From the NCBI RefSeq assembly GCF_044704955.1, contig NC_091989.1, forward strand, positions 56,358,001 through 56,422,000: DNA of 64,000 bases. The letters run 5' to 3'. Under the pieces are notes generated by a model, which ran no database searches, was not told the origin of the DNA, and was given only the letters and a program-made list of their open reading frames with translations. Source of the DNA: Pristiophorus japonicus. Its lineage: Eukaryota. Below are positions 5,269-56,025 of this stretch, one piece after another; positions within the stretch are counted from its first letter, which is position 1, and each line of letters begins with the position of its first letter. The position numbers and the translations under genes were made by a program.

Positions 5269-5809
5269 TGTTGTGGAAAAATATTTCCAAGACTGTATAA
5301 TATATAAAGAGAGGTTTATTAAATCGGAGACAAAGCTTTGGGAGAAGTGTTAGAGACCCCTGTCTCTGAACCAGCTTCTCAATTTGGTATCTCCAGTGAG
5401 GTTCTTTTATCTTACAAATTACGTCACTTTACATCACATGCTTTAGCACTATTCCTTAAGTCTAATCATCGCATTACAAGATTTACAAAGCTTTTCATAC
5501 AATTACTATCCAAGGCTGAGCTCTTGATATAAACCAGCCTCGCATTGTGACAGGGCATTATAAACAAGTGCAGGCTTTTTGGCACCGGTATAGACAAACA
5601 TACCCACACTTATCTCTCCAGTCGTTCATTATCTCACTTTCCTATCTCCATAACTCAAGGCCAGCATACCTTGAAGTCTAACTGTGTTTTTTTATATAAA
5701 GCATAATGCATCAGTATTGTCCCTTACAAAATTCATTAAAGGGGAAAATAAAAACAAATGTTTGGTCCCGTATACTAGTCAAGTATATGTCCAAAAATCC
5801 GCTCCAACA
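5269..5809 (-). repeat. ERV-A 3' LTR (541 bp)
   Basis: Direct repeat of 16539-17078 (about 8 substitutions plus 1 indel by eye); preceded on the minus strand by the polypurine tract CCAAAAGGAGGAATAT; minus-strand AATAAA at 5315-5320. Confidence 0.95.
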
Positions 5810-5948
5810 ATATTCCTCCTTTTGGTCCTGGAAGATGTTCACAAAATCCAGATGACCACAATGATAGTAGCATGGTGTCATATATTCGTCCTTTGGGGTA
5901 TGTTACTTCCCTGATGTTCCGTATATCCACCTTGCCTGTAGCTCTAGG

Positions 5949-7318
5949 CTACCCTTCAAAAAGAGAGTGGTCGGTGTCAACGTCGTCTGTTTCTTCATCC
6001 TTGGTGTCTTCAGGTATTTCCATCAGGTGTGCTTCTTCTTCGGCGATTACACTGGCTACTGGCATCAGTCGGGCCATCATAACTTTACAGCAGATATTAA
6101 AACACCCGATAATCAGACAGCAAGTAATTATTATTACAACCAGAATAATTACTCCATGCATAAAATAGGACCCCCAGGATCTCCCTAACAGCCAGTCAAA
6201 CCAGCCAGATCCTCCTGCTGTCGTGGATAACTTCTTTACCTCCATTCTTATGTGATCAGTGAGGTTGGTTATGTTTTCTGAATTATCGGGAATGTAAGTA
6301 CAACATTCAGCTCCAATTAAGGCACATGTGCCCCCATTTTGTATATAATCTAGGGCCATTCGGTTCTGGAGTACCATTGTGCGTATTTCAGCCATTATGC
6401 CCTCTATTGCTTCAGTAGTGTCATTAACTATCTGTTCCATTACCCTCTCTAGGTTACGTAATTCATCCATGGTGCGTCCTATCCCGAATGGGAGCATCAT
6501 GACCCCAAATAGCCTCTCTACCGGGGTAAGATCTCGTCTTAGTCGACCTAGTGTCTGTACTTCTGCTAAAGTACGTACCCGTCTGACAAAAGGGACCACA
6601 TATCCCAAATAACAGGACCCCCTCCAGTCCTGAGGCAACCAGGGGTAGGCCTTATGCCCACACACAAAATAAGTGCCATTGTATGCTGTTCGATTCGATC
6701 CCAATCTCTCTTTCAGCCCCCGTCGCCACCTAATCTTAGGGTCCCAGTCCTGGCTACTTGTCTGATTCTTCAAACCCTCTATTTCAAAGAACCCCTGGTT
6801 TGTTGTTTCGCTGGCTATTATGTTCCACCTGGTGAGGTTAAAGTATCCTGCTACAAAACCTGTTTCCTCACCAGTCAGGTTTCTAGTGAAACAAATGTCA
6901 GCGGTGGGCCTTCCAACTCCTGAGGTGTTGGTCAAAACCAGAAACGGGGGTCGTACCGACCTATTGTATTCCGGCTGGTACCATCCGTCAATGCATCCAA
7001 AAGGTAACCCCCCGATCTCCACGTTTCTTTATCCCCACTCTGATTCCAAGTATCATTTACTTTCCCTGTACCGTTTTGTCGCATTACCCACTCCGCTACT
7101 TCCGAAATGTTAAGGGAGATTGACCTCAAAGGGATGCCTCCTTTGCTATGTATGGGGATGTGCGAACATACCCAGCAACTGGAAAAGTTCTCATTTTGCG
7201 CATAAACACAAGACATGTACAAAAAGGTATTCACATGTAACTCTCGTTTCGGTATAGCTAGCAGGCCGGACCTAACACGAACTATGATAATCGCACCGAT
7301 CGCAATATATAGTTTCAT
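5949..7318 (-). pseudogene. env: ERV-A envelope, gamma-type (one frameshift near 6990)
   Basis: Signal peptide MKLYIAIGAIIIV; CWVC (CXXC); furin site RLRR; ISD LQNRMALDY; CX6CC (CALIGAECC); hydrophobic TM; upstream acceptor TTGTTTGTCTATTTACAG near 7397. Confidence 0.93.
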
Positions 7319-7431
7319 CTTATTACTCTATAATTAACAAATAGTCAAAGGCAAAATGGCCGTATGGCTTGCTTGAAGAATCTCTCGCTGTCAATCTGTA
7401 AATAGACAAACAACAACAACTAATACATGTG

Positions 7432-10400
7432 CTAAACGGCTGGTTCAAAAACCTTATGCTGGGTCCAATGCTTCCATTTTCCGTTCCCTTTAACATCGAT
7501 GCAGGCACAAGTGTCCTTGCTGATTATAACCTCATACGGTCCTATCCATTTTTGGGGCAAACCCCGGTTTTCCCGGAAGGACCCTTACCATAACGCGACT
7601 TCCCGCCAACGGGACTTCAGGGAGCTTTGTAAGCTCTGCTTCCGCGTCTCTTTCTTCCTGATTGTCCCTAACTAATTTACGCATCCCTTTTAATTGAGTA
7701 CTTAGTTCCAAAACATACCGTTTTATTTTGTCTTTTAATGGGCCTACATCGGTCCCCCCTGTTATGATGATCTCTGGTAATTGCATCGCCCTTCCTGTCA
7801 TTAGTTCATAAGGGGTTAATCCGGTTGTCCGGTTTGTCGTGGCTCTTAACTTCATCAATATAATGGGTAATACTTCTGTCCACGTTTTTCCTGATGTTTT
7901 CATAGCCTTTGCCAGAGCGTTCTTAAGGGTATGGTTCATGCTCTCTACCATCCCAGAACTCTGCGGGTGATAGGGGTTGTGGAATTTTTGTTTTATGCCC
8001 ATCAGCTGGCATATTGTTTTTACAATTTTTCCGGTGAAGTGGGTGCCTTGGTCAGAATATCCTTGCCACTGTTGAGGCAGTGCAATCACGTGTGGGGAAA
8101 GCTTCCACCCACCGGGTAAATTGATCTATAATCACTAGGCAATATCTTTTTCCATGGGATGGGGGCAAAGGACCTGTGAAATCAATTTGTACATGTTCCC
8201 ATGGCCCCCGTGGACAGGGCTGGTGTCCCATTTTAATTTTAATGGGCCTGCCTGGATTATATTGTGCGCACGTAACGCATCGATGGCAATATTTGCCGAT
8301 ATCTCTCCCCATCCCTTTCCACCACCAATCTCTCCCAAGACTCCCGGTCATGGCCTCTCGTCCTGAATGAGACAGGCCATTATGCAACTCCAATAAGGTA
8401 TTCTGTATGCATTCAGGTGCCATTACCTTGTCGTTTCGTCTCCAAACGTTATCCTTCCCTTGCGTTGCGCCCTGCTTTGTCCACATACCTATTTCCTCCT
8501 CAGAAGTGTCCTGGTGTAGTTTCTCAATACTTATCTGTTCGACTCGGGTCCCAGCGGCACTGACTGAGGCTTCCTCACACTCTTCCTGTTCTAATGCCTT
8601 CTGTGCAGCTACGTCTGCAGCTTTATTTCCCTGGTGACTCAGCCAATCTGGACTGGTTCGGTCCGGCTCCCTCCTGTGGGCTTTAATTTTAATAACCGCT
8701 ACCTGTTTTGGTTTATTACTGGCTGCTAAAAGAGCTTCTGTTCTCAGCTGATGCTTTATGGGATGTCCGCTAGTTGTGATAAAACCCCTTCTCCCCCATG
8801 CTGTCATATAATCGTGTACTACCCCGAATGCATATCTACTGTCCGTATAGATATTAACAATCTTATTTTCCGATAATTCCAGTGCCCGGGTGAGGGCTAC
8901 CAGTTCTGCCACTTGAGCTGATGACCCCCCATTAATTCGCCCTGATTCCACTGACTCTAGATCTTGGTTAACTACGGCCCATCCGGTACGAGATAGTCCT
9001 CTATGTATTTTCGTGAGCCGTCCACAAACAAGGTTTGTTCTGCAGTTTGAAGGGGGGCGTCTTTTATTCTATCCTCTTCCATATCCTCACATACCTCTTC
9101 GCAAAAGTGGGGTTCCCCTTCACCCATCATACCTTCTGCGGGGTTGTTTCCTACATCCCTAATTATGGTTACCGCTTTGTTGGGTGTTAAGAGGACTGCT
9201 TCCCACTTTGCCCGTCTTATATTAGATACGGTTCTCAGTTTTCCTGTGTTTAACATTTCTACCAATGTGTGTTTAGTGTGGAGAATGATGTTTCCAGTCA
9301 TCACCACAGGCTCGTTTAATTTTTACCGCCCAAGCTGCGCAATCTAGCGCGGCTATACATCAGGATAACCCAGTCACCACCGAGCTTTCGGTGGTAGAGT
9401 AATAGGCTATTGGTCTCCTTTTATCCCCGTGATCTTGGGTGACCACGGCCATATAGAACCCACCTTCATTGTTACAGTGGATGTGGAAATCCTTACTCAT
9501 GTCAGGCAGTCCCAATCCAGGTGCGGAAACTAGTTCTGACTTGAGTTTATTATACGCCTGTTCTTGTTCAGGGCCCCACTCTATGAGGTCTAGGGCCGGT
9601 TTCCCCCCTTTCACTAATCTTTGTATTGGCTCAGCAATTTTTGCAAAATCAGGGATAAAGTTCTGGCTGTAATTAAAGAGGCCCAGTATCTTCCTCACCC
9701 CCCTTACCGTTACTGGTCTAGGCATGTCCTTGACAGCCTTTTTCCTATCCGAGGGCATTTCTTTCAGCCCCTTTGAGAGGCAGTACCCTAGGTACAGGAC
9801 CTGGGATTTCCCTACCTGGGCCTTTTTAGGGTTAACCTTAAGGCCCGCCGTTTCCAGAGCCCTTAATACTAAGTATAGGGTTGCCTGATGTCCTTCCTTG
9901 GTTTCTGAGGCTATTAATATGTCATCGACATATTGTAAAATACTATTTCCTGCCGATACCTATATTTGTTTTAGTATATCACTCATGACACGATGGAATA
10001 TGGCAGGACTATTATGGAATCCTTGTGGTAATTGGGTCCAAGTATATTGTTTATCCTCCATCGTGAAGGCAAATTTTTCTTGTGATTCTGGGTCGAGGGG
10101 AAAGGCCCAAAAACCATTGGCTATGTCCAGGACTGTAAAGATCTTATGTTCAGGGGATAATCCATCAAAAATTGTGGAGGGGCTGGCCACTATCGGGTGT
10201 AATTTGGGGGTGACCTTGTTAAGGGCAGTGTAGTCGATAGTGAGTCTATAACTCCATCTGGTTTCCCTACCGGCCATGTTGGGGAGTTAGTGGTGCTAAC
10301 TGTTTCTTTTAAGATACTCTTTTCCACTAGCCCTTTTACTATTTCTACAACCGCTGTTCTAGCTTCAGGTCTTATAGGGTATTGTCGGTGTGGTTTATGA

Positions 10401-10942
10401 GGTGGTCCAGGGACTTTAATAGGATCCATCTTCGCCTTTCCAGTATCCAATTTTGTCTGTGCCCAGACCCCGGGCACAGAGGCACATATGCCTCCATACC
10501 CTCCAGTCCCAATAAGCCAGTCAGTTTTTGTGGCTGTAGCTACACCTATACTTTCCACATGGTGGGCTATCTGTCCTAAATCTCCCTTACTGCCATCCGC
10601 CTTTGGCCATGTCAGTTTCCCCTTGCCGCAATCAATCAGGGCCTTAAATTCCTTCATTACATCATTCCCCAATATTGTTCCCTCACGATTCTTGTATACG
10701 TAAAATCTCATGGGTATATATAAGTTATCAATTTCCACCAATTGGATGGTGCTCAGGTAGGCCAGTGTGGGCCGTCCATCTATTTCGTTTATCAGAGCCT
10801 TCTTGTCGGTGACGGGAAGGGGCATATTGGTAATGGATATTGAGGCTCCCGTGTCCACTAGCATCTCATACTGTCGGCCCCCTACTAGTGCAGACACATA
10901 TATCCTTCCCTCCTTTTTACTTTGTATAGGGGCTGCCGGACA
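7432..10942 (-). pseudogene. pol: ERV-A pol (PR-RT-tether-RNaseH-IN), multiply frameshifted
   Basis: LVDTGAS protease; LDIANGFW..YTWTQLPQGFHNSP and QYVDD (9921-9932) RT; LFVDGS, SAQVAELVAL, IYTDSRY RNase H; HHCC, QIDFTGP, SDQGTHF, YHPQSSG integrase. Confidence 0.95.
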
Positions 10943-11321
10943 TCACCGGGTGGCTTTGTACGCCTGCTACTTCTGGTATTCCTGTTCTGACAGGGTCCTT
11001 GCCTTATTAGGATAGCCATTTTTACCATAGCATGTCGCTTCCAGATGCCCTTTCTTACCACAATACGTACATTGCTTTTCACTGCCTTTCCCTTTGCATT
11101 CCCTGGCAAAATGGCCCGGTTTTCCACAATTATGGCAAGTCCCCCTTTTCTGCCCTCCTCCTGTTCCCGTGGCAGAGACCTTTTCCTGCTTTATCTTTTT
11201 CTTTTCTAATCTGCTAAAGCTTACTGTTTTAGCCTTTTTCAAAAGTCTCTTTTACACCTTTGTTGTAGGTATTAGGCATCCTAGGGCAACGGCACCTGTA
11301 GGATAAGGGTAGAATTAAATA
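10943..11321 (-). pseudogene. gag: ERV-A gag C-terminal remnant (nucleocapsid, two CCHC knuckles)
   Basis: [14 protein letters not shown] and [14 protein letters not shown]; in frame with the protease across TAG (10967-10969) and TGA (10943-10945). Confidence 0.9.
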
Positions 11322-11883
11322 TGTAACTTGTACCATAAAATGGCTACCAGTGAAGCCTCAAGGGATTTATGTTAGCTGAAATAGACCGCATTCCTGGAGA
11401 CTGATACTTGTTGTTTCCCACACACAGGACCAGCAAGCAAGCTCTGCAGGTGTCTCTAATCAGCTAGGTCTCAGGACCAAATGTTCTAGTAACAATACGG
11501 CTCTGTAGCAGGATGGAGATAAGGAGGCTACCCAATGCCAGCATCCAAGGATAGTAAGATAAGAGAGGCCCAGGCCATGTTACAAGACACATGAGTCATC
11601 CCTAGCAACACACCCCTTAGCAACACATCTCTTGGCAACACATGAGCCACTTTACGTTTAGAGACTAACGCTATTGGTCTAATGTAACTGTAGTAAACTG
11701 TTGTATGTAACTGTAGTAAATTGTTGTAAAACATATAAAGATCCATGAAACCCTTTGTTCAGCGGAGAGAAGCCTGGACTCAGTCTTGTGATTTCCTCCC
11801 CGCTGGTGTGAATAAAGGCCGCACTGGCATTGGAACCGACTCTGAGTGTTGAGTGATTCTTCTGACAAACACTAACACTAACA
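11322..11883 (+). repeat. Element B 5' LTR (562 bp)
   Basis: TGTAAC...CTAACA termini; TATA-like CATATAAA near 11732; AATAAA at 11811; immediately followed by the PBS; 3' part repeated at 15397-15466. Confidence 0.88.
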
Positions 11884-11884
11884 G

Positions 11885-11902
11885 TGGCGTCACGAACAGG
11901 AT
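11885..11902 (+). promoter_or_regulatory. Primer binding site, tRNA-Ser(CGA)
   Basis: TGGCGTCACGAACAGGAT is complementary to the vertebrate tRNA-Ser(CGA) 3' end ATCCTGTTCGTGACGCCA. Confidence 0.85.
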
Positions 11903-12425
11903 TTCGGGGTCGCTGGGCGCCCTTGGAAAAACCCGGGTGAGTATACAAAACGATTTTTAATTATAAAGGGTGCGGAAGGTGGATGCTGGTTGATCGACAC
12001 GAGGAGATGGTCCAATATCTTAAACACCTAGCCTGAGCCTGAATTAAGAGGACTTTAGTCCCACGTGACGGCCAGGAATTAAGTAGGTGCCGGGAACACA
12101 CTTGGACCGTGGGATCGTGATACTGAAAGGCATCTTCCAGACCCAGCAGTGTAATTTGTAATATACCCCGGGGTAGAACAGCGGCTAACGGAATCCAAAC
12201 CTGCGAACAGGGTCGGACCAACGGGCAAGAGCGGTGGTAGGTAGTCGTTAAGGTTAACGTAAGCACTGCGGGAATTGCTTAAACGCGTTTTAAGAATTGT
12301 ATAAGTCTGTGTAACAGCAGAACTTGTGACCTGACAGTAGCTAGGAGACGGTTTACTACAAGTTACGCTAGGTAGAAAGCGGACCTCTGAGAGTAGATAC
12401 CTAATGGATCTAGTCCTACCCAGGA

Positions 12426-12642
12426 ATGGCCATGAAAGCAAGTAAACTCGAGTGGGGATCAGAAGGGTCCATTACCCGCCATCTGGCGGAAAAGCAAAAG
12501 AAACTAATCGAAAAAAATGATTAGAGCAGGGTGGAATCCTCAGGAACTACCAGCAAAGCAACGGGAATGGTGGGAGAAGGAACGGAAAGTCAAAAAGAAA
12601 AAAAAGGCTGTGGTCTTGATACTGCGAGCCCACGTAAATTAA
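12426..12642 (+). pseudogene. Basic matrix-like ORF remnant of element B (one frameshift)
   Basis: MAMKASKLEWGSEGSITRHLAEKQKKLIEK / MIRAGWNPQELPAKQREWWEKERKVKKKKKAVVLILR downstream of the PBS; Trp/Lys-rich like retroviral MA. Confidence 0.4.
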
Positions 12643-13979
12643 CATAGGAAGCTAAGATTTAAAAAAAACTGACGGTGATTGTCTTAAGTGAAGTGTGGAA
12701 GAGGAATAGAGCTGGCCAAAAAAAAAAGATTAATAGGAAAGAAGAGAGACTTTTGTGAACGTCTGTCTTAAATGAGAAGTGCCTGTGTGATTTTGTGACT
12801 GCGGAATGAATTTTTATGTTGTCATGTTTCTGAAAGCCTGGTTGGAAGAGGAATGCAAGTGTCTGTTTATTTTAGCTAACCCTTTGTAGTGTTGTCCTGT
12901 ATGTGGGAAGTTTTAAGACATTTTAAGTTAGAAACGCAGGTGTGGATTTATTCGGATGATTCGGATGATAAGTTACGGAGCTAGGAAATGTACAAAGGAT
13001 AGGTTTGTTGAGCAAAAGATAAAAAATACATGGTCCCGGTGGTTAAAAAAAAGAATTTACTTGTCGAAAGAAAACATGCAATGATTGATTGGGTTGAAAG
13101 ACATAAATTTAGTCTCGGAATGAGATAAGGAATGCTTTTAAAAAAAAAAAGAGCTTCTAGCAAAAAAAAAGGTTTTAAATAAAGATTGAAATTACAAAGT
13201 TTGAATTGGGATTTTGAGATATTCAGAGAAGGCACAGAAAATAAAGACGCCACTTTAAAAGTAAACAAAATGTGTTTGTGATGGAAAAGGACATAACTTA
13301 CTAAATACTAGTTGATGTTTGCTGTGAAAAAGATATTGGTTTAATTAGAAAAAGAAACAAAATTTGGAAGAGGTAAAAAAACACTTAACATTGATAATGA
13401 TTTTAAATTATGAGAAAGTTTCAATGCAGTTTGAAAAGATTTCCAAAATGGACAGTGTTTATCAAGAAAAGTCCCGAACAGTCTAAACAAGCAGGAGGGT
13501 TTTGAAGATCTAAGCTATGCGAACTCAGCACAGAGAAAAAAAAAAACTGGAAATTAGAGAATCTTACTGAATTCTTAAATTCTTATAGAAAATGGAACTG
13601 GCACAGAAGTTTAGATTTTGTGCTGAGAGAAATTAAAAAAAAACAAAATTGAATTTCAGTAAACAAAATTGCTATTAAAAATGTGTGGTCTCGTTTTATA
13701 TAAAAAAAAAATGTATTTGGCAAGTACTTGAATTAGAAGTTAAGAAAACATTGGAGTTTACTCTAAAATGCCGTCTTCCCTGATGAGAAGATTTTTATTA
13801 TTTATGCTGTTTAACGGATTCCTAATTTCTAAGCCAGTTTTGAAGGCACAAAGACTTTTTTTTACAGATGATTACGTGAAGTCACGTAATGACATCAGGT
13901 CTTCTTACAAACCTGGAAAGGAGTTAACCCTTTCCATTGACAGCCGTTTAAGCTGCTGAACATTATTAGTTTGGATTTC

Positions 13980-14210
13980 TTAATAGAAAAAAAACTCACC
14001 TAACAGAGGAAACAAAAATAAAAACAGAACTAGCTTATGTAATAATACTTGCCTGATACAATAAAGAAATAGATACTCAATAAAACAAATTGAAGAGTTA
14101 AAAGCTAAGATAAACAGGCTGGAAGAGATAACGGGACTAGACGGATAGTGCAGTGCGCAGCCATAGCACCATCACCTATGGCAATAGAGCCAATGTACCC
14201 CACGGTGGGT
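13980..14210 (+). pseudogene. Coiled-coil plus Pro-rich gag-like remnant of element B
   Basis: KQIEELKAKINRLEEITG heptads followed by APSPMAIEPMYP; interrupted by stops. Confidence 0.35.
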
Positions 14211-14253
14211 AGGTGTAGTCCACAAACCCAACCTAACGGTAAAGCAGACAACG

Positions 14254-14367
14254 ATGTTCGGAGGAATAGCTTTGGCCTTGGTCATTATAGGAGTTTGGGT
14301 AATATTTAAGTGGGTAAAGACACGGGCGCACGCCCCACAAATTCAACTCGAAATGGTTCGATTATAA
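14254..14367 (+). CDS. 37-aa single-pass membrane micro-ORF upstream of element B env
   Basis: MFGGIALALVIIGVWVIFKWVKTRAHAPQIQLEMVRL*; hydrophobic helix followed by basic residues; ends just before the acceptor TGCTTCTGATTTCGCAG (14388). Confidence 0.4.
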   Translation: MFGGIALALVIIGVWVIFKWVKTRAHAPQIQLEMVRL

Positions 14368-14473
14368 CCTGTGCTTCTGATTTCGCAGGGTGACAGGGAT
14401 ACTCGTAGCGCAAAACCTAACCCCTGGTGACGACCAGGCCGTCTGTTTAAAATTACAGATAATACCTACCAGA

Positions 14474-15396
14474 ATGGGAATACGAATGGCACTCCTCGTA
14501 ATATGGATAGCCCTGCGACATGCACGTACCCTGGACAACACCGACGGATTGCAGCGCACTCAGGAAATAAACAACTACATGAACTATGGAGTCTTGTTTA
14601 ATTTAACGGATGGAATGTGCATCCCAGCAGCCAAGGACTGGAGCAAGGACAGGACTTATTTTAATGCATAAGAGTATGTGTACAGTGCTCCACGGGTATA
14701 AGGAGCAGCTGCATTAAACAGAGGGATGTCAAGGGGCCTGATGAATGTACTTTCTGTACTTTCGGCATAATTTGCACGCCTCCGGGACAATCCCAGCAAT
14801 CAGTCATCCGCAAAAAGGGAGTGGGGCTGTGTGGGTATTACGAGGAGGTGGGGGCGGCTGCAATATCATTGTATGTATGCTTCTCACCCCCTCCGACACC
14901 GCACCCCATAAGAACCACAACATTGTCCGAGGAACTGCCTTGTCCCATAACTACTAAGGGACCAGAGAATGGGATTGTAATGTACAACGAAGGGGAATTA
15001 TTGTATGATAATGTTAAACATGAAATTGTGCCTGTCCTGATCAATATTTCAGGCATCCAGATGCCGGAATACTGTACGGAACAGTCAAGGAAAATGTACA
15101 ATGTATTAAGTAAAGTTGTAATGCAGCAGGCTGCCGATGCAATGGGTGCCAGTAGATTCCGAGGACAGGGGTCAGCCCTCAGGATAAAGAGGGAAATAGA
15201 CATACAAGGATTAAATGAGAAGGTGGAACAGCTTAGAGGGGTGATGAAAGGGTTATTAGAGAGGGTGGAGCAAAACCAGGAAGACCAGGCCAACTTAGGA
15301 AAGGAGGGTGCCAAAATCCAGTTGGATGACATCTCAGTCCTGGAAGCTCACGCCAAAACCATCAATCACCTCATACAGGAAAGCAAAGACAGGGGC
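14474..15396 (+). pseudogene. env: Element B envelope glycoprotein, lokiretrovirus/paramyxo-F-like, 3' truncated
   Basis: Signal peptide MGIRMALLVIWIAL; Pro/Thr linker; GPENGIVMYNEGELLYDNVKHEIVPVLINIS; furin-like RIKR; long heptad IDIQGLNEKVEQLRGVMKGLL; no CXXC motif in the part present. Confidence 0.62.
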
Positions 15397-15466
15397 AAAG
15401 GCCGCACTGGCGTTGTAACCGACTCTGAGTGTTGAGTGATTCTTCTGACAAACGCTAACACTAACA
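15397..15466 (+). repeat. 3' terminal remnant of the element B LTR
   Basis: AAAGGCCGCACTGGC..GACTCTGAGTGTTGAGTGATTCTTCTGACAAAC..CTAACA matches 11814-11883. Confidence 0.92.
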
Positions 15467-16517
15467 CGTTCACAGATAGCTCACCACTCGCCCAGGAGTT
15501 TGACCTGATCCCTGAAGGTATTTCTAAATTTAAAACTCTTTTTTTTTTTACTGAGCTAGAAGCTTTCGTGTCAAGGTTTTACACAAAGGAAAATGGGAGC
15601 GTTTTAAAAGGCATTCTTTATCTCATTCCTAGACTAAATTTATGTCTTTCAACCCAATTGCATGTTTTCTTTCGACAAGTAAGTGAGCGTGTCAAATAAA
15701 TTCTTTTTTTTTTTACTACCGGGACCATGTATTTTTTTATCTTTTACTCAACAAACCTATCCTTTGTGCATTTCCTAGCTCCGTAACTTATCATTCGAAT
15801 ATATCCACACCTTCGTTTCTAACTTAAAATGTAATACCATAAGGTTCAGTTTCTTAAACTTCCCACATACAGGACAACACTACGAAGGGTTAAAAAAACA
15901 TTCACTCTGTTTGGAAAAAGTGGATGGAGCTAAAACAGGCAGGCAACTCTACACCTTCCCAAACAGGCTTTCATTCATTCTGCAGTCAAAATCACTCAAG
16001 TACTCTCTTCATTCAAAATAGACACTCACAAAAGTCTCTCTTCATTCAACAAAGCTTATGTCTGGATCCATATGTCACTTAAGATAGTCACTATCAGCTT
16101 TTTTATGGCATTATGTAATTACCCAAGTTACAATTAATGATAGGAATTAATTAATGACCCGGGCAGCCCGCGTTTTACATTCCCTTCCTTACCTTACATG
16201 TTCGCCAGTCTTGGACGTTTCCCTTTGTTTCTGTAATACTCACGGCCACGACTACTCTGTGGAGACCCTTTGTCTTCGCAACAAAGCTAGCGTGTTTCCT
16301 TACCACCGGAGTTTTGGCTCTAGGTTGGAGTGATCAGTTCCCTTCCGCACCGACCTTATTTACTAAAGGGACAACTCAAACTGGTTAGTCAGCCTCTTCC
16401 CGCTATCTACTTACTTGTATCTTATACACTATCCCATCGTGCCCGTACACCTTTCTTTTCAGTCTCTAACACCAGATTCCAGATACTGTCTTAAGTGATC
16501 ACGTCTGATCGGACAGT

Positions 16518-16535
16518 ATCCTGTTCGTGACGCCA
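16518..16535 (-). promoter_or_regulatory. ERV-A primer binding site, tRNA-Ser(CGA)
   Basis: Plus-strand ATCCTGTTCGTGACGCCA, 3 nt inside the 5' LTR; the same 18-mer as the element B PBS. Confidence 0.88.
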
Positions 16536-16538
16536 TTT

Positions 16539-17078
16539 TGTTGTGGAAAAATATTTCCGAGACTGTATAATATATAAAGAGAGGTTTATTAAATCGGAGA
16601 CAAAGCTTTGGGAGAAGTGTTAGAGACCCCTATCTCTGAACCAGCTTCTCAATTTGGTATCTCCAGTGAGGTTCTTTTATCTTACAAATTACGTCACTTT
16701 ACATCACATGCTTTAGCAATATTCCTTAAGTCTAATCATCACATTACAAGGTTTACAAAGCTTTTCATACAATTACTATCCAAGGCTGAGCTCTTGATAT
16801 AAACCAGCCTCGCATTGTGACAGGGCATTATAAACAAGTGCAGGCTTTTTGGAACCGGTATAGACAAACATACCCCCACTTATCTCTCCAGTCGTTCATT
16901 ATCTCACTTTCCGATCTCCATAACTCAAGGCCAGCATACCTTGAAGTCTAACTGTGTTTTTTTATATAAAGCATAATGCATCAGTATTGTCCCTTACAAA
17001 ATTCATTAAAGGGGAAAATAAAAACAAATGTTTGGTCCCGTATACTAGTCAAGTATATGTCCAAAAATCCGCTCCACA
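16539..17078 (-). repeat. ERV-A 5' LTR (540 bp)
   Basis: Direct repeat of 5269-5809; flanked by the PBS and TSD CTAC. Confidence 0.95.
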
Positions 17079-17189
17079 CTACGTTCCTCTGGGACCACCA
17101 GGTACTTTCATAGATTTTTTTCGAGTCGTATGCAGGAAGCCTCTGACCACAATTTCTGGGCCCAGATAGAAATTTTAATGATCTAGAAA

Positions 17190-45923: not shown

Positions 45924-46513
45924 CTCCAGACTATTGTCGCTCTCCCTAAGGTCTGGCAAGCCAAGGATGGACGATATGGCCTTGAGACTTTCAGTAGTGA
46001 CGGAATACTCTTTAGTTCCGTTGGCTGGATGCACTCTTGTCCGTGTCTGTGATGTCAACTGCCGCGATCTTCCTCCCTCCCCAGAGATTTTGCCTCTGGC
46101 ATTGGGAAGACGCATTCGGATTGTTTTGGCTGGAGTCCCACTCTGCTTGGTCGACTTGGAGCCTCTTCCATCATTGTGAAGAGGTCGTCGGCTTTGGGTG
46201 GTGGGTACCGCGCCTGTACCGCTGCTCGGTTGATCTTCATCTCCTCGTGGTCGATGAGCGGTCTGTGCCTCGTGAATCTGCAAATGGATCTGCACTTTGA
46301 TGCCTGGTTCAGCTGAAGGTGGAGGCTTGCACAGCCTTTGAGCAAGCGAGACGTCATTCGCCGGAGAAGTACGCAGAGGTCTTCCAGTTCCATCAAATCT
46401 TCCCCATCCACCTTCTATCAAGCAGCATTGGCCCATCACCTGAAACAATCCAGTGGTAAATCGTGCATCGCTCCCTCATGGGATACTCTTATGTCCGCAC
46501 TACCAATAACTGG
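45924..46513. repeat. 590-bp direct duplication of Gypsy-2 sequence (second copy 53043-53634) flanking ERV-C
   Basis: Both copies begin CTCCAGACTATTGTCGC and end ACCAATAACTGG; their paired ORF translations are near-identical. Confidence 0.95.
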
Positions 46514-46814
46514 ATGTTTCAGGGGAAGAGGGAGAGGAGGTGCAGGGCGGGAACAATATGATGCCTGTCACAATTGTGGTCAGATTGGACACTGGGCTAG
46601 AACTTGCCGGGCAAAACAGCAACAACCAAATTATGATTGGACTCAACAGGCAGGTAATAGAGCACACCCTCCCCCTTCAGGACCCAACCCGTATGCGACC
46701 CAAATCCAGGTACATGCTAGACCTCAGACTAATTTCTCTGTGCAAGATCCATTTGGATCACAGAATCAAAAGCAATTCAGCCAACCACCAAATTGCCCGT
46801 ATAATGATCAATGA
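46514..46814 (+). pseudogene. gag: ERV-C gag C-terminal remnant (one CCHC knuckle)
   Basis: RGRGRGG..CHNCGQIGHWARTC; ends in TGA-C in frame with pol. Confidence 0.88.
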
Positions 46815-49800
46815 CGCCCAATCCCAGACCCGAGTGCTGCGAACAAACAGCTACCCGTCGTTTCATTAAATGCCATAGGAGAACCTGAAGTAAAAATACG
46901 AATACAAGGGAAGGATATCCCATTCCTGGTGGATACTGGTGCCACCTATTCGGTCCTTTCAAGGGAAGATACGAGGGGAATTCCCACTTCCACTAATCAA
47001 ACCTCAGTGATTGGACTATCTGGACACGCACAGCAAATGTTTTTCTCCAACCCTATCAATGTACAATTAGAGGATTACGAAGATAATCATTCATTCCTAC
47101 GTGACCTGTTATGTAAAATGAGTGCCACAATCCTCTGTTCCCCAGCTGGTCTGGAGGTTCGGGTCCCCATAGATAAATGTGGCGCATACCCACTACTTCA
47201 ACCCACAACTCCCATATTGTATGCCTGGAAAAATTTGGATCCCACACTAAGCAAAACCCTATCCTATTTGGTTGGTTCATATTGGTGTGTAACAAGGTTA
47301 ATCACAGACTACCTCAAATCTCAAACCTTGGGCAAGTGGTACGAAACATTACACTGCACAGCATATTGTGACAACACGGGATCAGATGCTACAGCACAAA
47401 TCTTTTATCAACCATTCCTGCACCAGAAACATCAATTGATGATCGAACAAATCTTTATCAGACCCGAAGGGATAGCGGCAAGGGTTGAATTACCCTCCCA
47501 CAGTCAGAGCTTGTTTAGGGTTGAAGAGAGCGTTCCACACTGCACCCTTGCGGTTGCAGGCACACATAAGCCCCAGGATTTGGGACGAATGGTTAAAAGA
47601 ATGCAAGGATCCCCAGTACAAGAGGAATGGCACACACGTAATGGAACTTTGGGGCAACATGAAAGGGGGGGAGGCTATTCTGTCAAGTTGAATGGGAAAA
47701 TATACTTCGATGTTGTCTTAGAAGAAAGGATGCTTTCAGCCACTAGCTTCCCAGTACAACAAAGCACAGCAGAGCTTCTTGCTAAAGTTCCAGAACAACT
47801 ATGGTCTACACACGCTAATGAAGTAGGAAAGATGCTCACCGCACAACCATATAAGGTAGCGATCAATTCAACCGCCCCACTCCCCAAGAAGCCCCAATAC
47901 CCCTTGTCCCCAGCCGCAGAACAAGGTATCGAGCCAGTCATCAAGTCCCTGCTGGCCCAGGGAGTAATCGTTCCAACTAGAAGTCCATGTAACACTCCGA
48001 TCTTTCCGGTGCAGAAGCCCAATAGTGACAAATGGAGATTTGTCCAAGACCTACGAGCCGTGAATCATTCGGTATTCCCAACTTATCCGGTGGTACCCAA
48101 CCCGGCAATTATACTTGCCAGTATTCCGGCATCATCAACCTATTACACAGTAATTGATCTGTGTTCAGCATTTTTCTCAATACCCATTCACCCAGAGTCC
48201 CAATTCCTGTTTGCCTTCACGTATAAAGGACGCCAATATACGTGGACAAGACTCCCGCAGGGATTTACCGAGAGCCCTACCATATTCTCACAATGCCTAA
48301 AGAGGGATCTGGAAGATGTAATTTTACCAGCAGGTTCTACACTTGTGCAGTATGTTGACGACTTATTGCTCGCCTCACCCTCCAAATTGGCCTGCGAAAC
48401 GGACTCCCTTGTGTTATTAAAAGCTCTGGCCTCGAAAGGACACAAGGTGTCAAAGGCAAAGTTACAATTTGTCTCACAAAAGTTTTGGTATCTAGGGCAC
48501 GAATTGGTCAGAGATACGAGACAATTGACACAAGACCGAGTAAAAGCAATCTGCTCTGCCCCACTACCAGTAACCAAGAGAGAAATGAAACACTTCCTCG
48601 GCATGACAGGATACTGCCGGCAATGGGTTATGAGTTATTCCGAGATCGTTAGACCACTGTTAGACATGTCCATGCCTGCACGACCAGAGAAGTTGATTTG
48701 GAATGAGGTATCCCGGAATGCTTTTCAGAACCTTAAACAGTCCCTCACTTCAGCACCCGCCTTGGGATTACCAGATTACACTAAGCTATTCAACTTATTT
48801 GTGCATCACAAGTCGGGTTTTGCACAATCTGTTTTGACTCAGTTACATGGGGACAGGCAGCGACCGGTAGCATATTTCAGTACCCAACTAGACCCAGTGG
48901 CACGCGGACTACCAGGATGTCTTCCTTCATTGGCAGCAGCTTATTATGCTATGCAACAGGCTCAGACAATAACTCTAAATCATCAGACCATTTTGTATAT
49001 CCCACACTCTGTCGAGATTTTACTTACTACGTGTGCCACCCAACACCTAACCTCCGCAAGAACCACTAAATACGAGGTCGAACGGTTATCAAATCCGAAC
49101 CTTATCATCAAAAGATGCACTACCTTAAATCCAGCCACTCTACTCTCCACGGAAGACGACGGTGAACCCCATTCATGTGAAATGGTAACCGAATTAGTGA
49201 CTAAACCACGTATCAATCTAACAGATGTACCAATGTGTAACCCTGATCTAGTGTACTATGTTGACGGATCAGCCCTACGAAATGATAGGGGCCAACCTAG
49301 AGCGGCTTATGCAATTGTAACTCAGTTTAATGTTGTCGAAACAGCCTCTCTTCCAGACTCCTTTTCAGCCCAACAAGCCGAATTGTTTGCGTTAACTCGA
49401 GCCTGTATTCTGGCTGAAGGACACACAGTTAATATCTACACTGACTCCAGGTATGCTTTTGGTGTATCACATGACTATGGACAAATTTGGAAGATTCGCG
49501 GGTACCTGACTTCTTCAGGAACCCCTATCAAAAATGCAGAACAAGTGGAAAATCTCCTGCGAGCCATTCAATGCCCCTTGAAACTTGCCATTATCAAATG
49601 CCAAGCACATACAGGCCAGTCGAATGAGGTGGCACTTGGGAATGCCAGAGCTGATAATGCAGCTAAGTCAGCAGCTCTGTCAAAAGGGGGGATGCAGGTG
49701 TCATTGTTCCCACTAAGGAAAAATAATTGCTCAGACCCGCCACCCACTATTAATGACGTGCTGGCCTTTCAGACACAGGCCAGTACGGAGGAGGTGGTGA

Positions 49801-50924
49801 CCTGGACGAAGGATCAATGTTATAAAAATCCAGAAGGAATATGGGTTCACCACGACGGCTGCGTGGTGGCCCCCAGATCCTTACTTCCATGGATTGCCCG
49901 ATGTGTTCATACATTCACACATGCGGGCAAAGGGGGATTGGCAGATTATATTTTGGCAACTTGGTATGCACCAGGTATTTCAGCAATTGCAAAACAAATC
50001 TGTGAAAATTGTGTTACCTGTCAGACAATGAATCCGGGTAAGACGGAAAAAGTAGAATCTGCCTCCCACCCAAATCCAGTCGGGCCTTTTGTACATTTAC
50101 AAATGGATTTTATTGAATTACCTATGTGTATGGGATTCAAGTATGTATTAGTTATTGTAGATGTGTTCTCTAGATGGATTGAAGCCTTTCCATGTAAAAA
50201 GGCCGATGCCACTACTGTTGCTAAATGTTTGTTAAAAGAAATTGTACCGCGCTTCGGAATCCCTGCTAAGCTTTCTAGTGATAACGGGTCACATTTCACG
50301 GGAACTGTTATAAGAGAAATGTGTAAAGCTTTGCAGATTAACCAACGTTTTCATTGCAGTTATCATCCACAATCAGCTGGACTTGTTGAAAGATATAATG
50401 GAATGCTTAAAAATAAGCTGGCAAAACTATGCAATGACACTGGACTGAAATGGACAGAACTGCTGCCCTTAGCTTTGATGGTAATGCGATCTGCAACCAA
50501 CAGAACAACAGGCCTGTCACCGCATGAGATAGTTATGGGACGTCCCCAACGACTACCTTTTACAGCACCATTTACTGCAAAACAGATGGACATCCACAAA
50601 ATGGAGGAAAATATGTTGAATTATTGTATTGCACTAACCAAATGTATTTCCAGCTTTCATTCACAGGTAAAGGAAGCCCAAGTCAAGCCAGCGGAAGGGA
50701 AGTGTCATAACCTGGAGCCAGGGGAATTCGTTTACATCAAGATTTTTAAAAGAAAAAGCAGTCTACAGCCAAGATTCGAAGGACCATACCAGGTCTTGCT
50801 GGTGACCAATACTGCAATCAAGGTAAAGGAAAGACCAACATGGATCCACACATCCCATTGCAAACGGGCACCCGACCAGGAGGAAGGGAAGAAGGAATCA
50901 GAGGAACAGAAAAAGGAAGACTGA
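46815..50924 (+). CDS. pol: ERV-C pol: PR - 2H phosphoesterase - RT - tether - RNaseH - IN, uninterrupted frame
   Basis: LVDTGA; LHCTA/PHCTL; IDLCSAFFS, LPQGFTESP, QYVDD; YVDGS, SAQQAELFAL, YTDSRY; HHCC, QMDF, SDNGSHF, YHPQSAG, GPY; protease appears to lack its LLG-RD motif (small in-frame deletion). Confidence 0.95.
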   Translation, partial: RPIPDPSAANKQLPVVSLNAIGEPEVKIRIQGKDIPFLVDTGATYSVLSREDTRGIPTSTNQTSVIGLSGHAQQMFFSNPINVQLEDYEDNHSFLRDLLCKMSATILCSPAGLEVRVPIDKCGAYPLLQPTTPILYAWKNLDPTLSKTLSYLVGSYWCVTRLITDYLKSQTLGKWYETLHCTAYCDNTGSDATAQIFYQPFLHQKHQLMIEQIFIRPEGIAARVELPSHSQSLFRVEESVPHCTLAVAGTHKPQDLGRMVKRMQGSPVQEEWHTRNGTLGQHERGGGYSVKLNGKIYFDVVLEERMLSATSFPVQQSTAELLAKVPEQLWSTHANEVGKMLTAQPYKVAINSTAPLPKKPQYPLSPAAEQGIEPVIKSLLAQGVIVPTRSPCNTPIFPVQKPNSDKWRFVQDLRAVNHSVFPTYPVVPNPAIILASIPASSTYYTVIDLCSAFFSIPIHPESQFLFAFTYKGRQYTWTRLPQGFTESPTIFSQCLKRDLEDVILPAGSTLVQYVDDLLLASPSKLACETDSLVLLKALASKGHKVSKAKLQFVSQKFWYLGHELVRDTRQLTQDRVKAICSAPLPVTKREMKHFLGMTGYCRQWVMSYSEIVRPLLDMSMPARPEKLIWNEVSRNAFQNLKQSLTSAPALGLPDYTKLFNLFVHHKSGFAQSVLTQLHGDRQRPVAYFSTQLDPVARGLPGCLPSLAAAYYAMQQAQTITLNHQTILYIPHSVEILLTTCATQHLTSARTTKYEVERLSNPNLIIKRCTTLNPATLLSTEDDGEPHSCEMVTELVTKPRINLTDVPMCNPDLVYYVDGSALRNDRGQPRAAYAIVTQFNVVETASLPDSFSAQQAELFALTRACILAEGHTVNIYTDSRYAFGVSHDYGQIWKIRGYLTSSGTPIKNAEQVENLLRAIQCPLKLAIIKCQAHTGQSNEVALGNARADNAAKSAALSKGGMQVSLFPLRKNNCSDPPPTINDVLAFQTQASTEEVVTWTKDQCYKNPEGIWVHHDGCVVAPRSLLPWIARCVHTFTHAGKGGLADYILATWYAPGISAIAKQICENCVTCQTMNPGKTEKVESASHPNPVGPFVHLQMDFIELPMCMGFKYVLVIVDVFSRWIEAFPCKKADATTVAKCLLKEIVPRFGIPAKLSSDNGSHFTGTVIREMCKALQINQRFHCSYHPQSAGLVERYNGMLKNKLAKLCNDTGLKWTELLPLALMVMRSATNRTTGLSPHEIVMGRPQRLPFTAPFTAKQMDIHKMEENMLNYCIALTKCISSFHSQVKEAQVKPAEGKCHNLEPGEFVYIKIFKRKSSLQPRFEGPYQVLLVTNTAIKVKERPTWIHTSHCKRAPDQEEGKKESEEQKKED

Positions 50925-52319
50925 ATAAGGAACTGTATGGACTATGGGGACTGATGGTGCTGGGCTTGACAGGGTTTTACTTCGCATTATTGATTACACC
51001 AGGGGTACAGACCCGCCACCGAAGGGAATTGCACGTAAACGTATTTATGGCGCTGAGTCATAGATATGTTCACGAAAGAAACTTGTCAAGTTGTTGGGTG
51101 TGTTCCCATGTGCCTGTCCACTCCAGGGGGGGTATTCCCCTGAGATCTGTCCCCTTTAACGAATCAGAAATAGTCGAATGGTTGACAGTGCAAAATAGGA
51201 CAAAACTAACTAAGGGGCCAGAAACGAAGGAGCAAATAGAATAGAGGTCGGCAGGGTATAAACTTACAGCCTTCCAGGGATGGTACCAACCCAATTATGA
51301 TAATAACCATCAGCCTCCCTTCCTAAGCATTACTCCCAGAATAGAAAATCCCGAAGGTATAATATGCCTAGTGAGTAATGAGACTAAAGGACCAGAAATG
51401 GGACGCAGCAAGTGTTCCCAAATGATTAAATGGCAAGCCACAACTAATTCCACTGAGAGAAAGATAGCAACCCGTTGGCTGGACAACGGTCCATAACAAA
51501 GCCCCAGGTAAAGGGTGGGAAGGTGAGACCACTCGAGTAGGGACAGTGCGAAAGGACCAGGAGCTGACGTCCTATAATTGCACCTACTTTATTTGTGGCC
51601 ATAAAGCCTACCCATGGTTACCAGCCAACTGGACAGGGTCCTGTTACTTAGGATATGTGGTACCCCTTATCAGATCAGTAAAGACTCTAAGGGAGGCCTA
51701 TGGAAGTCACAGATTTAAACGGGATTTGACGTGGCTAAACGGAATATTCAAGGTAATGGTGCCACCCTATAGAATAGCATCAACCGAATGGCAGTTACGG
51801 GAACTGGCTAACTTAGTCGAATCAGTAGCCAACGCAACTTCCCAAGCCTTTGAAGGGATAAATGACGAAATGGTAGCTATTCGAACAGTGGCTCTCCAAA
51901 ATCGTATGGCCTTAGATTATCTCCTAGCCAAGGAGGGAGGAACATGCGCATTAATAGGTGAAGAATGCTGTACATATATCCCAGATAAATCAGAAGATAT
52001 CGGCAGTCTAGCTGAAAACATCAGGAAAAAGGTAATAGAGTATAAACAGACAGTTGGCCAGGACGGTATCACCTTGTGGGGTTGGGCATCAGGATGGTTG
52101 GGAGCCCTGGGGAAATCTGTGGTACAGGGTTTGATCATATTCCTGCTGATAGTCTTCGCCCTGTATCTATTATTTGTCGTCGTTAAGTGTTGCTGTGCCA
52201 GGGTGGGAGAAACTATGTTACCTACCGAGACCACGGCTAGAGTTATGGTAGCAACAACTGCTGAAGGCTCTTGTGTGGAAATGGAAATGGAGAGACTGTA
52301 CAAGATCAGAATGGATTAA
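50921..52319 (+). pseudogene. env: ERV-C envelope, gamma-type (stop at 51242, frameshift ~51.5 kb)
   Basis: Hydrophobic signal; CWVC; furin site RFKR; ISD LQNRMALDYLLA; CALIGEECC; TM LIIFLLIVFALYLLFVVV. Confidence 0.93.
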
Positions 52320-52349
52320 GTTGTCCTTGTGAAGGACAAAATGGGGGAA

Positions 52350-53042
52350 TGTGGAAATGTATTTTTATCTAAGCTGATACCATACGGTATTTGTGTGCCC
52401 TTTGCAATATATATATATCAAAATGGAGTCCTGGCCCTTCCAGAACTTTCTGCATTTTAGCAGTCAGCTTGCATAAACAGCTAAACCTGGTTTGAGATGG
52501 CTGATGGCCATCAGACAGCTAGGAGACAAGTCATGCTGAGACAAGTACCTCCCCCCCCCCATGGTGCTCTCCTATTGTCTACACAACAAGAGTTCCATGT
52601 CACCCCACCCTTATCTTCTAGCCATTATCTCTTGCAGAGACCTCATCCATTTGATGCAAACAGATAAACTGACCAGGAAATTGAACTATCCTGACACAAT
52701 ACAAGACAGGTGATAGCCCATTACCTATGACTCATGGAGTAATGGCCGGCTGGTCAACTGATAACCCTGACAAAAGGAAATATCTGGATACCATGTCAGG
52801 ACCAGGATATAGTAATTAACTCTTTATCTGCATTCACTGACTGTGAGACAGAGCAATACACAGGGAGAGGCCATAACTTGGGTTTTACTGTATAAATATC
52901 TTGTTAAACTGAACCATTTCGGTGGTGTTCGCTTAGCCCTTGACTGAGTGTAACCTGCCCCTTGCTAGCAAGCGAATTAAAGAAACTTCTACCGGAGCTG
53001 TAAGTGTCGGAGTCATTCGTTTCAGAGGTCGAGATTTCGACA
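52350..53042 (+). repeat. ERV-C 3' LTR (693 bp)
   Basis: TGTGGAAAT...ATTTCGACA inverted termini after the PPT; TATAAA ~52891; ATTAAA ~52976. Confidence 0.88.
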
Positions 53043-56025
53043 CTCCAGACTATTGTCGCTCTCCCTAAGGTCTGGCAAGCCAAGGATGGATGATATGGCC
53101 TTGAGACTTTCAGTAGTGACGGGATACTCTTTAGTTCCGTTGGCTGGACGCACTCTCGTCCGTGTCTGTGATGTCGACTGCCGCGATCTTCCTCCCTCCC
53201 CAGAGATTTTGCCTCTGGCATTGGGAAGACGCATTCGGATTGTTTTGGCTGGAGTCACACTCTGCTTGGTCGACTTGGAGCCTCTTCCATCATTGTGAAG
53301 AGGTCGTCGGCTTTGGGTGGTGGGTACCGCGCCTGTACCGCTGCTCGGTTGATCTTCACCTCCTCGTGGTCGATGAGCGGTCTGTGCCTCGTGAATCTGC
53401 AAATGGATCTGCACTTCGATGCCTGGTTCAGCTGAAGGTGGAGGCTTGCACAGCCTTTGAGCAAGCGAGACGTCATTCGCCGGAGAAGTACGCAGAGGTC
53501 TTCCAGTTCCATCAAATCTTCCCCATCCACCTTCTATCAAGTAGCATTGGCCCATCACCTGAAACAATTCACAGTGGTAAATCGTGCATCGTTCCCTCAT
53601 GGGATACTCTTATGTCCGCACTACCAATAACTGGTATCGGGTTCCTTGTTGTAGATGCGCAGCTTTGCCTGAATCAGGATCAGCTTGGGTCATTGTGCTC
53701 TGTTGCCCCACAGCCTCTCGAATGCCTTCTGGCTCATTATTGATTGACTCGCCCCCGTGTTCAATTCCATGGAGACTGGAGTGCCGTTGAGTTTGACTTT
53801 TAACATTATCGGAGGGCTTTTGGTGGTGAAGATGTGTATTCCATATACTTCCTCTTCATCCTCAGGTTGAATTGCCTCTCCTGCTCATTCAGCGTGATCC
53901 TCGCTGGATCGGTCGTCCTCTCCTGACTCTGCCACGTGGTGAGTCACAGGTCTTTTGCACATTTGCTGGAGGTGCCCCATTGTTCCACAGCCCTTGCACA
54001 CATAGTGCTTGAATCTACATTGATGGGCTCTATGACTGCCCCTGCAGCGCCAACATGGTGTTAATGGATACGCATTCACGCCCTATGGCAGACTCAGTCA
54101 CCCTAGGTCTGGCCTCTGCGATCATGTAGGCCCTGCCATGTACAGTTCTGCCTGCTGAAGGCATTATTTTATGCACAGTACTTTCCGGTGAGCTTCGATT
54201 CTGTGAAGATATATTTCGTGTTGTCGCTCGTGGATATGAAAGCCTGGGCTATCGTGATGGCCTTGCTCAGATCTAGGGATTCGGCAGACAGCAGTTTGCG
54301 AAGAATGACCTCGTGGCCGATTCCAAGCACGAAAAAGTCCCATAACATTTCCCCCAAAGATCTGGCAAATTCGCACTGTCCCGCAGGGCATCTTAGGTCG
54401 GCGACAAAGCTCGCCATGTTCTGGCCCTCGGAGCGATGGTGCATATAAAAGCGATACCTGGCCATTAAGATGCTCTCCTTCAGTTTGAGGTGTTCCTGAA
54501 CCAGCATGCACAGCTCTGTGTAGGCCTTGTCCGTTGGTTTGTCCAGTGCCAGCAGATTTTTGAGGAGGCCATATATCGAAGACCCACATACGGTGAGGAG
54601 AATCGCCCTGCGTTTGACCGCCGTCTCAGCCTTGTCCAGTTCATTGACCACGAAGTACTGGTCGAGACACTCAATGAAGGCTTCCCAATCATCACCCTCA
54701 ACAAAACTTTCCAGAATACCAACGGCAGCCATTACCATGTGAAAGTTTGTGATCCGTTATTCGTTGCCAATTGTTATGTTCAGAATAACTCCACAAGACT
54801 GTATTGTAAGCTCAAACTGTTGTGACCTTGGTCTCTTTAATGTAACTCCAGAGTGAGGAAGCAGCATGGTAGATTACCTTTTATACCTGCTTGCCCAGGG
54901 TGCAGAGGTGACCTTTAGGTCTCCCACAGGTGTGCCCCCTGGTGGCAAGTCTTACATATTGGTGAGGTTTACATACATACATGACAAGTTATGCCACGGA
55001 TAAGTGGCCAGAAGCTCATTTCCGGGTCAAATATGACACCTCGGTTGCGAACTGTCTGGTTCGGTCTCAATTTGGCATGCGCACGCTCCAGTGCAAAAGA
55101 GTTTGGTTCAGAATATTGCATCCAACATACTCTGATCCTAAGATGGTAGTTGATTATCAGATCCATTTGAGCCTTTTGAATAGGGGAACAGAAATGGAGC
55201 TTGGAACCTGTCATGACCTTCTAGACGAATCCCATTTGACAAGCTCCATGCCCAGCTTGCATCTACCATTCACTGGAAATCATATTTCAAATCATGATTC
55301 TATTATTTGAAACATTCGAAACCACAATAAGAATTGATGGATATTGTTCACCGATAAAAGTAAAGGCCGCGTCCTGTTTTAGTCCTCTGGCCAGTGACAA
55401 ACAATTCAGTCTATCTTAACCAAAGTCAGTGCTTAATATGGTCATTTAAAGAAACAGAATGCATTATATTCAGAGCTGAACTAAGACTGTCCTAGAAGTA
55501 TAGAAGGTTCGAGGAGAATTAATAGCCATAGCCCTTGTGCAAGTACATAGCCAAGAACCACTCCTTGTTCAGTCATTTTTCTTCTAACAATTTGTTATCT
55601 TGTGTGCAATGAATTGCTTTTACAGTAAAACTGTGTTCAGCGCAGCAAAATGTCACCATGACGGGAGCCAGCAGATTCAGCGTTACTAACTGACAGTTTA
55701 ACAAAATGGGAAAGACAGCAAGTTCAAGTCCAGACACAGTAAATACTCGGCTCAGCTTGAAACTGATGCATCTTTGACACTGATTTCTAAGACTCTCTAA
55801 TCTTTCTGCTGCAGAATGCAGCTCCAGTAATGAGGAAACTATAGTGAGAACATACTGAACCCTGATCTTAAACTGATTACACACTTCGCAAAATAAATGT
55901 AAATACTATGTAATTATGAGATTCAGTCAGTGCACAAAGATTAAACACTTCCAACTGGGAACACTGATTAATCTGTAATATGGAATGCATAATACATTTT
56001 AAGAGCATTATAAATTGTAATAACT

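Follow-up and report, generated by a model that had tools for sequence, protein, structure and literature searches.

Which retroviral lineage supplied the polymerase gene (pol) of ERV-A, and how did that gene come to be paired with a gamma-type envelope gene (env)? ERV-A is an endogenous retrovirus (ERV) in a 64,000-nt window of the Pristiophorus japonicus genome, whose numbering we use throughout; it is a minus-strand provirus, read from 17078 to 5269. An earlier note, made from the sequence alone, had proposed a lokiretrovirus (Loki)- or spuma-like backbone in which a gamma-type env had taken the place of an F-like one. The replacement still appears likely, as sibling families carry a predicted F-like env, but not on a Loki backbone. 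We consider it probable that ERV-A, a broken provirus without capsid, belongs to a canonical, non-Loki fish clade whose families carry either a gamma-type or a predicted F-like env, and that it likely derives from an F-env ancestor that gained its gamma-type env through recombination at the integrase (IN) end.

The two envelope types became apparent among the gag-bearing relatives of ERV-A. Of the 20 top matches to a capsid query for the clade (150 scored of 5365 candidates), nine carried a gamma-type env, five an F-like env and two a third type (full in L093, truncated in L078), while none was seen in four; ten further loci were chosen through the F-like env. The F-like env of the sibling families sits at the same position as the gamma-type env of ERV-A (5949..7318, minus strand), and the pols concerned are close relatives: the reverse transcriptase (RT) of the gamma-env locus L091 was 77% identical to that of the F-env locus L118 and 75% identical to that of the F-env locus L084. 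Between gamma-env and F-env families, DNA homology ran through pol and stopped about 30 nt past the last IN motif in all four pairs compared. Unrelated env types are carried by closely related pols, with homology ending at the pol/env boundary, and the same Gag/Pol backbone likely functioned with either of two unrelated entry proteins. Our literature searches did not turn up any pol clade in which the two env types coexist; the supplements of Chen et al. could show the same clade. The third env type (L093:6500-8400; L078:2996-3484) has a glycine-rich, fusion-peptide-like stretch and did not match any other env significantly.

The second env is predicted to have a paramyxovirus-F-like fold, i.e., that of a class Ib fusogen. 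It contains, in order, a furin site, a fusion-peptide-like stretch, heptad repeats, cysteine-rich domains and a transmembrane (TM) segment, and Fusion_gly clusters were on top in ESM Atlas (0.95-0.96). Foldseek matched its structural model first to the F protein of respiratory syncytial virus (RSV; E 5.6e-5), then to other F-type, toro- and foamy proteins; the Env of walleye dermal sarcoma virus (WDSV; L025:5962-9648) was also among the matches (E 0.014). In PDB, Foldseek found nothing at E 0.001 or better, the top nine rows all being F or foamy Env. The top two VIA matches of the model were foamy Env (Z 7.8, root-mean-square deviation (rmsd) 17.7, 156 aligned) and the F protein of Newcastle disease virus (NDV; Z 6.0, rmsd 3.7, 118 aligned). 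Several observations speak against the assignment: the ESM Atlas recognition value, 1701, lies under the threshold of 2300, the model is weak (predicted local distance difference test (pLDDT) 52.7, TM-scores under 0.2), all of its VIA Z values are under 8, and the env was unmatched in Pfam and PDB profile searches. Because these profile searches gave nothing and the other signals are weak, though concordant, we call the second env predicted, not proven, F-like. One homologue search with it returned nothing, and another a single protein, from Pristiophorus, which has 94% identity to a sibling env. Against an F-like env profile, WDSV, snakehead retrovirus (SnRV) and one foamy Env beat 100/100 shuffles at 1-7 bits, and murine leukemia virus (MLV) nearly did so, which we do not take as evidence. 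The SnRV Env (L013:7631-9190) scored F-like in ESM Atlas (0.95, with low recognition), and F-like Envs are described for lokiretroviruses (PMC7947760, in excerpt) and foamy viruses (PMC11468914, in excerpt).

The env of ERV-A itself, interrupted by one frameshift near 6990, shows the features that had been read from the sequence, namely CXXC (CWVC), an immunosuppressive domain (ISD; LQNRMALD) and CX6CC (CALIGAECC), along with a furin site and a TM segment. An env of the same family is found in ERV-C, an epsilon-type provirus on the plus strand of the window (45924..53342), which served for comparison. In the TM tree, the envs of ERV-A, ERV-C and the L079-type family, a second family of the ERV-A pol clade, formed a group with 98/99 support. 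ERV-C has its RNase H and IN in a clade neighboring that of ERV-A and its RT, unlike that of ERV-A, inside class I. The two proviruses are 50-59% identical in env (best in-frame blocks) versus 34% in RT, so that vertical descent is a poor explanation of the likeness of their envs. The greater closeness of env than of RT, the occurrence of the pol-env pairing throughout the ERV-A family and the F-env siblings all support a cross-lineage recombinant, as had been suspected. In ERV-C, the pro-pol frame is open over 1369 codons, but gag is short and env is broken.

For the placement of pol, the reference retroviral genomes were IMG/VR contigs found by an alignment scan; a viral-contig scan with the single ERV-A RT gave no matches, and a metagenome scan gave three distant loci, which were not used. 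The contigs that we take to be MLV, reticuloendotheliosis virus (REV), baboon endogenous virus (BaEV) and foamy viruses were labeled by their lengths and motifs. SnRV (L013), WDSV (L025) and Xen-1 (L026) were recognized by RT motifs compared with the supplement of PMC7947760 (in excerpt), and the Loki rows P0021/P0022/P0066/P0072 by eye, through motif matches to the same excerpt and their place in the tree. RT trees were built with 49 rows (LG+G4) and 24 rows (mixture model), and approximately unbiased (AU) tests with sets of 34, 28, 24 and 21 rows and short searches.

In the RT trees, Loki fell outside the clade holding ERV-A, with support of 100/99 (49 rows) and 99/96 (24 rows, mixture model). 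ERV-A grouped instead with shark, eel-cluster and unnamed proteins, its nearest labeled relatives being shark proteins from Mustelus (77% in RT) and Heterodontus (56% in RT). The case for a lokiretrovirus backbone whose F-like env was replaced by a gamma-type env had started from the RT, where ERV-A reads LDIANGFWAFPL, LPQGFHNSP and YVDD. The motif DIANGFW is indeed common to ERV-A and the Loki proteins P0021/P0022, both have a dual RNase H (tether plus RNase H), and predicted F-like envs occur in the ERV-A siblings. However, LDxxNGFW is not specific as a foamy- or Loki-type signature, since SnRV reads LDISNGFW; tether plus RNase H is common to all retroviruses; and the Loki Env, which resembles Mononegavirales F proteins (PMC7947760, in excerpt), has a predicted counterpart in the sibling families and not in ERV-A, whose own env is gamma-type. 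Loki RT reads CPFG and lacks LPQG, and F-like envs, too, occur outside Loki. Joining the ERV-A clade with Loki was rejected by AU tests, at p 0.010 for RT, 0.0014 for RNase H and 0.019 for IN, the overall range of p 0.001-0.019 applying to LG+G4 and two to three Loki rows. We regard such a backbone as very improbable. As it is unsupported, no extension of the Loki host range follows, and the Chondrichthyes row of the Loki supplement, as excerpted (0/3 genomes; PMC7947760), is unchanged by ERV-A.

Grouping of the ERV-A clade with foamy viruses was rejected on IN (0.019) and RNase H (0.008), with RT giving 0.65, and ERV-A has two CCHC knuckles and an in-frame pol, whereas foamy viruses have a Gag without CCHC knuckles and pol in a separate frame.

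With IN (97/96, 98/98) as with RNase H (98/97), the clade was sister to class I (gamma plus epsilon) in the best tree. On RT, this sisterhood was not rejected (AU 0.35), and the class I clade, with 100/100 support in the mixture-model tree, left ERV-A outside; nesting of ERV-A with ERV-C was rejected on RT and IN. Bit scores against solved structures were 205 for MLV RT, 142 for foamy and 120 for Ty3. A protein tree of the G000 families (31/37 rows) was mostly unresolved. The simplest reading of these comparisons is that the ERV-A pol would represent a separate basal lineage adjoining class I.

An alternative, which we deem unlikely, would make ERV-A an ordinary SnRV-like element (class III, clade Huo) that carries a class I env and acquired its class I-like RNase H and IN through a separate recombination in pol. 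SnRV is the closest named RT reference (41% identity), shares with ERV-A a gag-pol in frame across one stop, and is not rejected by AU tests as partner of the clade on RT (0.48) and RNase H (0.25); ERV-SA.a-Ppe (10.1101/2021.11.23.469661, in excerpt) and CmiERV lineage I (PMC4422223, in excerpt) would be precedents. On IN, however, the clade joined with SnRV and P0019 was rejected (0.02), and the RT SnRV group of the mixture-model tree (87/90) left the ERV-A clade outside. SnRV also differs from ERV-A in its far-away integrase, the lack of gamma-type motifs and another primer site; its env, like those of the F-env siblings of ERV-A, is predicted to be F-like. A crossover inside pol, joining an SnRV-like RT to a class I RNase H and IN, was considered as well; because RT does not reject class I sisterhood, we infer no conflict within pol. 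In any case, this alternative touches the label only and leaves the env swap standing.

A basal pol with a gamma-type env in cartilaginous fish is already known. An SnRV-like lineage was reported from the elephant shark by Han 2015 (PMC4422223; this and the following comparisons with that paper refer to the part available to us). Its CmiERV lineage I resembles ERV-A in having a cartilaginous host, a Ser-type primer site, an RT of the same type (LDISNGFW and LPQGFHNSP, in a by-eye translation) and an env that shares its motifs (YFVCGxKAYPWLP, LQNRMALD and CX6CC, again by eye). It differs in an RNase H of the P0052/P0054 (SnRV-group) type by eye, in the single knuckle seen and in its full gag; F-env siblings are not described in that part of the paper. 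ERV-SA.a-Ppe, as far as the excerpt of its source goes, joins a Pol of class III, related to SnRV, to a gamma-type Env of class I, a pairing like that of ERV-A, and, compared by its description rather than its sequence, it could belong to ERV-A's own clade. The same excerpt (10.1101/2021.11.23.469661) reports frequent pol/env incongruence in fish and amphibians and a screen for gamma- and beta-type env only, to which F-like siblings would be invisible. XtERV-S of Xenopus (PMC10536682, in excerpt) likewise has gag-pol of class III and a gamma-type env of class I, though in a frog and intact. What ERV-A and its siblings add is the likely exchange, within one clade next to the class I root, of two unrelated fusogen types.

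We favor a change from F-like to gamma-type env because F-like envs are spread more widely (Loki, foamy, SnRV) and gamma-type envs are close across distant pols. An F-env ancestor of ERV-A would have taken its env from an epsilon-like ERV of cartilaginous fish, presumably at the end of the integrase via template switching between co-packaged RNAs, and the ERV-A family would then have spread in trans, with Gag and often RT coming from a helper.

Not everything fits this scheme. Both DNA trees require two changes of env type; a single clade of the two gamma-env families was rejected by RT (p 1e-4) and not by IN (p 0.31), which leaves both one and two gains of the gamma-type env possible. The root inside the clade is weak, with a single long outgroup, and the direction of the swap does not come from rooting. 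RT fits class I, the SnRV group and foamy viruses alike as sister (AU 0.35, 0.48 and 0.65, as above), and in the TM tree the branching of ERV-A, ERV-C and the L079 family is a trifurcation, which does not single out an env donor. The env types of the families were read in the P. japonicus genome. No helper was found, and no capsid-bearing ERV-A parent among 35 loci and 20 gag hits. Finally, the ancestor of epsilonretroviruses has been argued to have had a gamma-type Env already (PMC9967133).

This last point also belongs to an opposite scheme, in which a gamma-type env was ancestral to class I and its sister clade and was kept by ERV-A, the F-env families being the recombinants. RNase H and IN do place the clade by class I, where the gamma-type env dominates, and IN does not reject a single gamma-env clade. 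Yet the envs of ERV-A and ERV-C are closer than their RTs, too close for descent from the common ancestor; the F-env families outnumber the gamma-env ones, and their envs are deeply diverged (23-61% identical to that of L113). Moreover, CmiERV scaffold 2, of the SnRV group, has by eye the same env family, as judged from the excerpted source, so lateral movement is needed anyway. We therefore judge this scheme quite unlikely.

A further-reaching version of the F-to-gamma change can be put forward tentatively, as a possibility short of an even chance: the clade may be a stem sister of gamma- and epsilonretroviruses that preserves, in one shark genome, the transition from an ancestral F-like env, shared with Loki, foamy viruses and SnRV, to a gamma-type env, with repeated exchange at the IN end. 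If so, the F-like Env would be the original retroviral envelope and the gamma-type Env a laterally spreading replacement. This would oppose an independent gain of Env by Loki and canonical retroviruses, which Wang and Han favor on the grounds that the Envs have no similarity (PMC9040795, in excerpt). Since then, the Env of foamy viruses has been shown to be F-like (PMC11468914, in excerpt). With both fusogen superfamilies present in a clade next to class I, on RTs that are 75-77% identical, the order of envelope gain and replacement becomes testable from genomes alone.

The extent assigned to ERV-A by the earlier note, 5269-17078, was borne out by a minus-strand long terminal repeat (LTR) pair, with the 5' LTR at 16539..17078 and the 3' LTR at 5269..5811, flanked by the target duplication CTAC at 17079-17082 and 5265-5268. 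Within these boundaries, the stretch 11261-15466 is a second element on the opposite strand, which had been missed. The primer-binding site (16518..16535, minus strand) matches the 3' end of a host tRNA-Ser(CGA) gene, in agreement with the Ser-tRNA site proposed before. It is followed by about 1 kb of non-coding leader and AT-rich filler in the place of matrix and capsid (15467..16517, minus strand), which is in part homologous, at 78-82%, to the nested element. Of gag, only the nucleocapsid (NC) end remains (10946..11260, minus strand), with its two CCHC knuckles; it had been described as gag in frame with pol across a stop, and the NC is indeed in frame with pro-pol, although the window copy has two stops there and the family one (the extra stop was missing in 34/35 copies). 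The pro-pol (7430..10942, minus strand), comprising protease (PR), RT, tether, RNase H and IN, is interrupted by one in-frame stop, near 9960, and by five frameshifts, near 10250, 9320, 9000, 8056 and 7530. The RT motifs, the tether with RNase H and the two knuckles reported earlier were all recovered by motif reading and Pfam, whose matches in ERV-A were RT, tether, RNase H, integrase, protease, zf-CCHC and TLV_coat. The window ERV-A is a dead, capsid-less copy.

The LTRs differ by eight substitutions and a one-base end indel across 540 columns. This 1.5% divergence agrees with the roughly 1.6% estimated before, but the conclusion that the insertion is fairly recent depends on the assumed rate, as the age would be about 3 million years (My) with a mammalian rate or about 34 My with the shark rate assumed in PMC4422223 (in excerpt). 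LTR pairs of 16 other ERV-A copies were 0.7-3.1% apart (median 1.7%).

Could the pairing be a chimera of this locus, or an assembly artefact? The locus does contain a nested insertion, but the LTRs match and are flanked by a target duplication. Of 40 places scored among 1604 candidates with a query over the pol-env junction, all 39 besides the window span the junction at 96-98%, and in one contig (X8), from a second organism's run, env and IN are likewise connected. Such an origin is hardly credible. Since this query was biased to the junction, 20 copies were also picked by NC alone: 18 had over half of the gamma-type env, one had a third of it and one none, and no F-like env was seen in any. 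The pol-env pairing is family-wide. As other copies keep this env and the RT does not fall inside the epsilonretroviruses, the two observations that had been named as arguing against a recombinant were not made.

The NC search found at least 150 places at 93% or more. Capsid was absent in 35/35 copies checked, the leader joining NC directly in every one, and RT was complete in only 4/20 NC-picked copies; the family is consequently non-autonomous and was likely copied in trans. Inside RNase H, 7/20 copies contain a 140-nt piece of family N type (described below), which fits co-packaging. As a separate observation, the NC-picked copies (L205-L224) often delete PR/RT yet keep IN and env (18/20).

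The nested sibling element (11261..15466, plus strand) belongs to this non-autonomous family N and has an LTR, a primer site and a target duplication (CCTT/CGTT) of its own. It accounts for 4.2 kb of the ERV-A span and splits the ERV-A leader from NC; it was missing from all 18 other ERV-A copies that extend to this point (of 20 fetched, 2 were truncated) and is locus-specific. After its 5' LTR (11261..11883, plus strand) come the tRNA-Ser primer site that ERV-A also has (11885-11902), a Gag N-terminus remnant resembling the Gag start of P0004 (12435..12585, plus strand) and a truncated env, predicted to be F-like and without fusion peptide (14381..15396, plus strand), which a deletion has joined to a U5 remnant (15397-15466, plus strand); the env C-terminus and most of the 3' LTR are gone.

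Among the best 40 of 2692 candidates scored, family N elements were about 5.5-6 kb long, with an F-like env and without pol and capsid. About 21 residues of this env are gone directly after the furin site in 6/6 aligned copies, and the deletion junction was visible by motif in 9/12 fetched stretches. Because the missing residues are those of the fusion peptide, the env is likely fusion-dead, and it was likely amplified in that state, to judge from the aligned sequences. Family N (window 14381-15396; L059-L063, L123-L134) is multi-copy and pol-less and keeps an env without fusion-peptide residues.

An AT-rich non-coding block replacing capsid is common to three defective families (window 15602-16047 and 12737-13143; L122:3018-3758). 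Elsewhere, only matches of 35-55 nt were found, in 4/29 other loci tested. The block may possibly be a cis signal for mobilization in trans.

The window also contains a Gmr1/Gypsy-like LTR element that has a pair of 265-nt repeats, together with a second fragment of gag (31887-35199 and 54169-54756), several pieces of CR1-like long interspersed nuclear elements (LINEs; e.g., 60973-62214) and minisatellites at 41167-41732 and 57500-59350.

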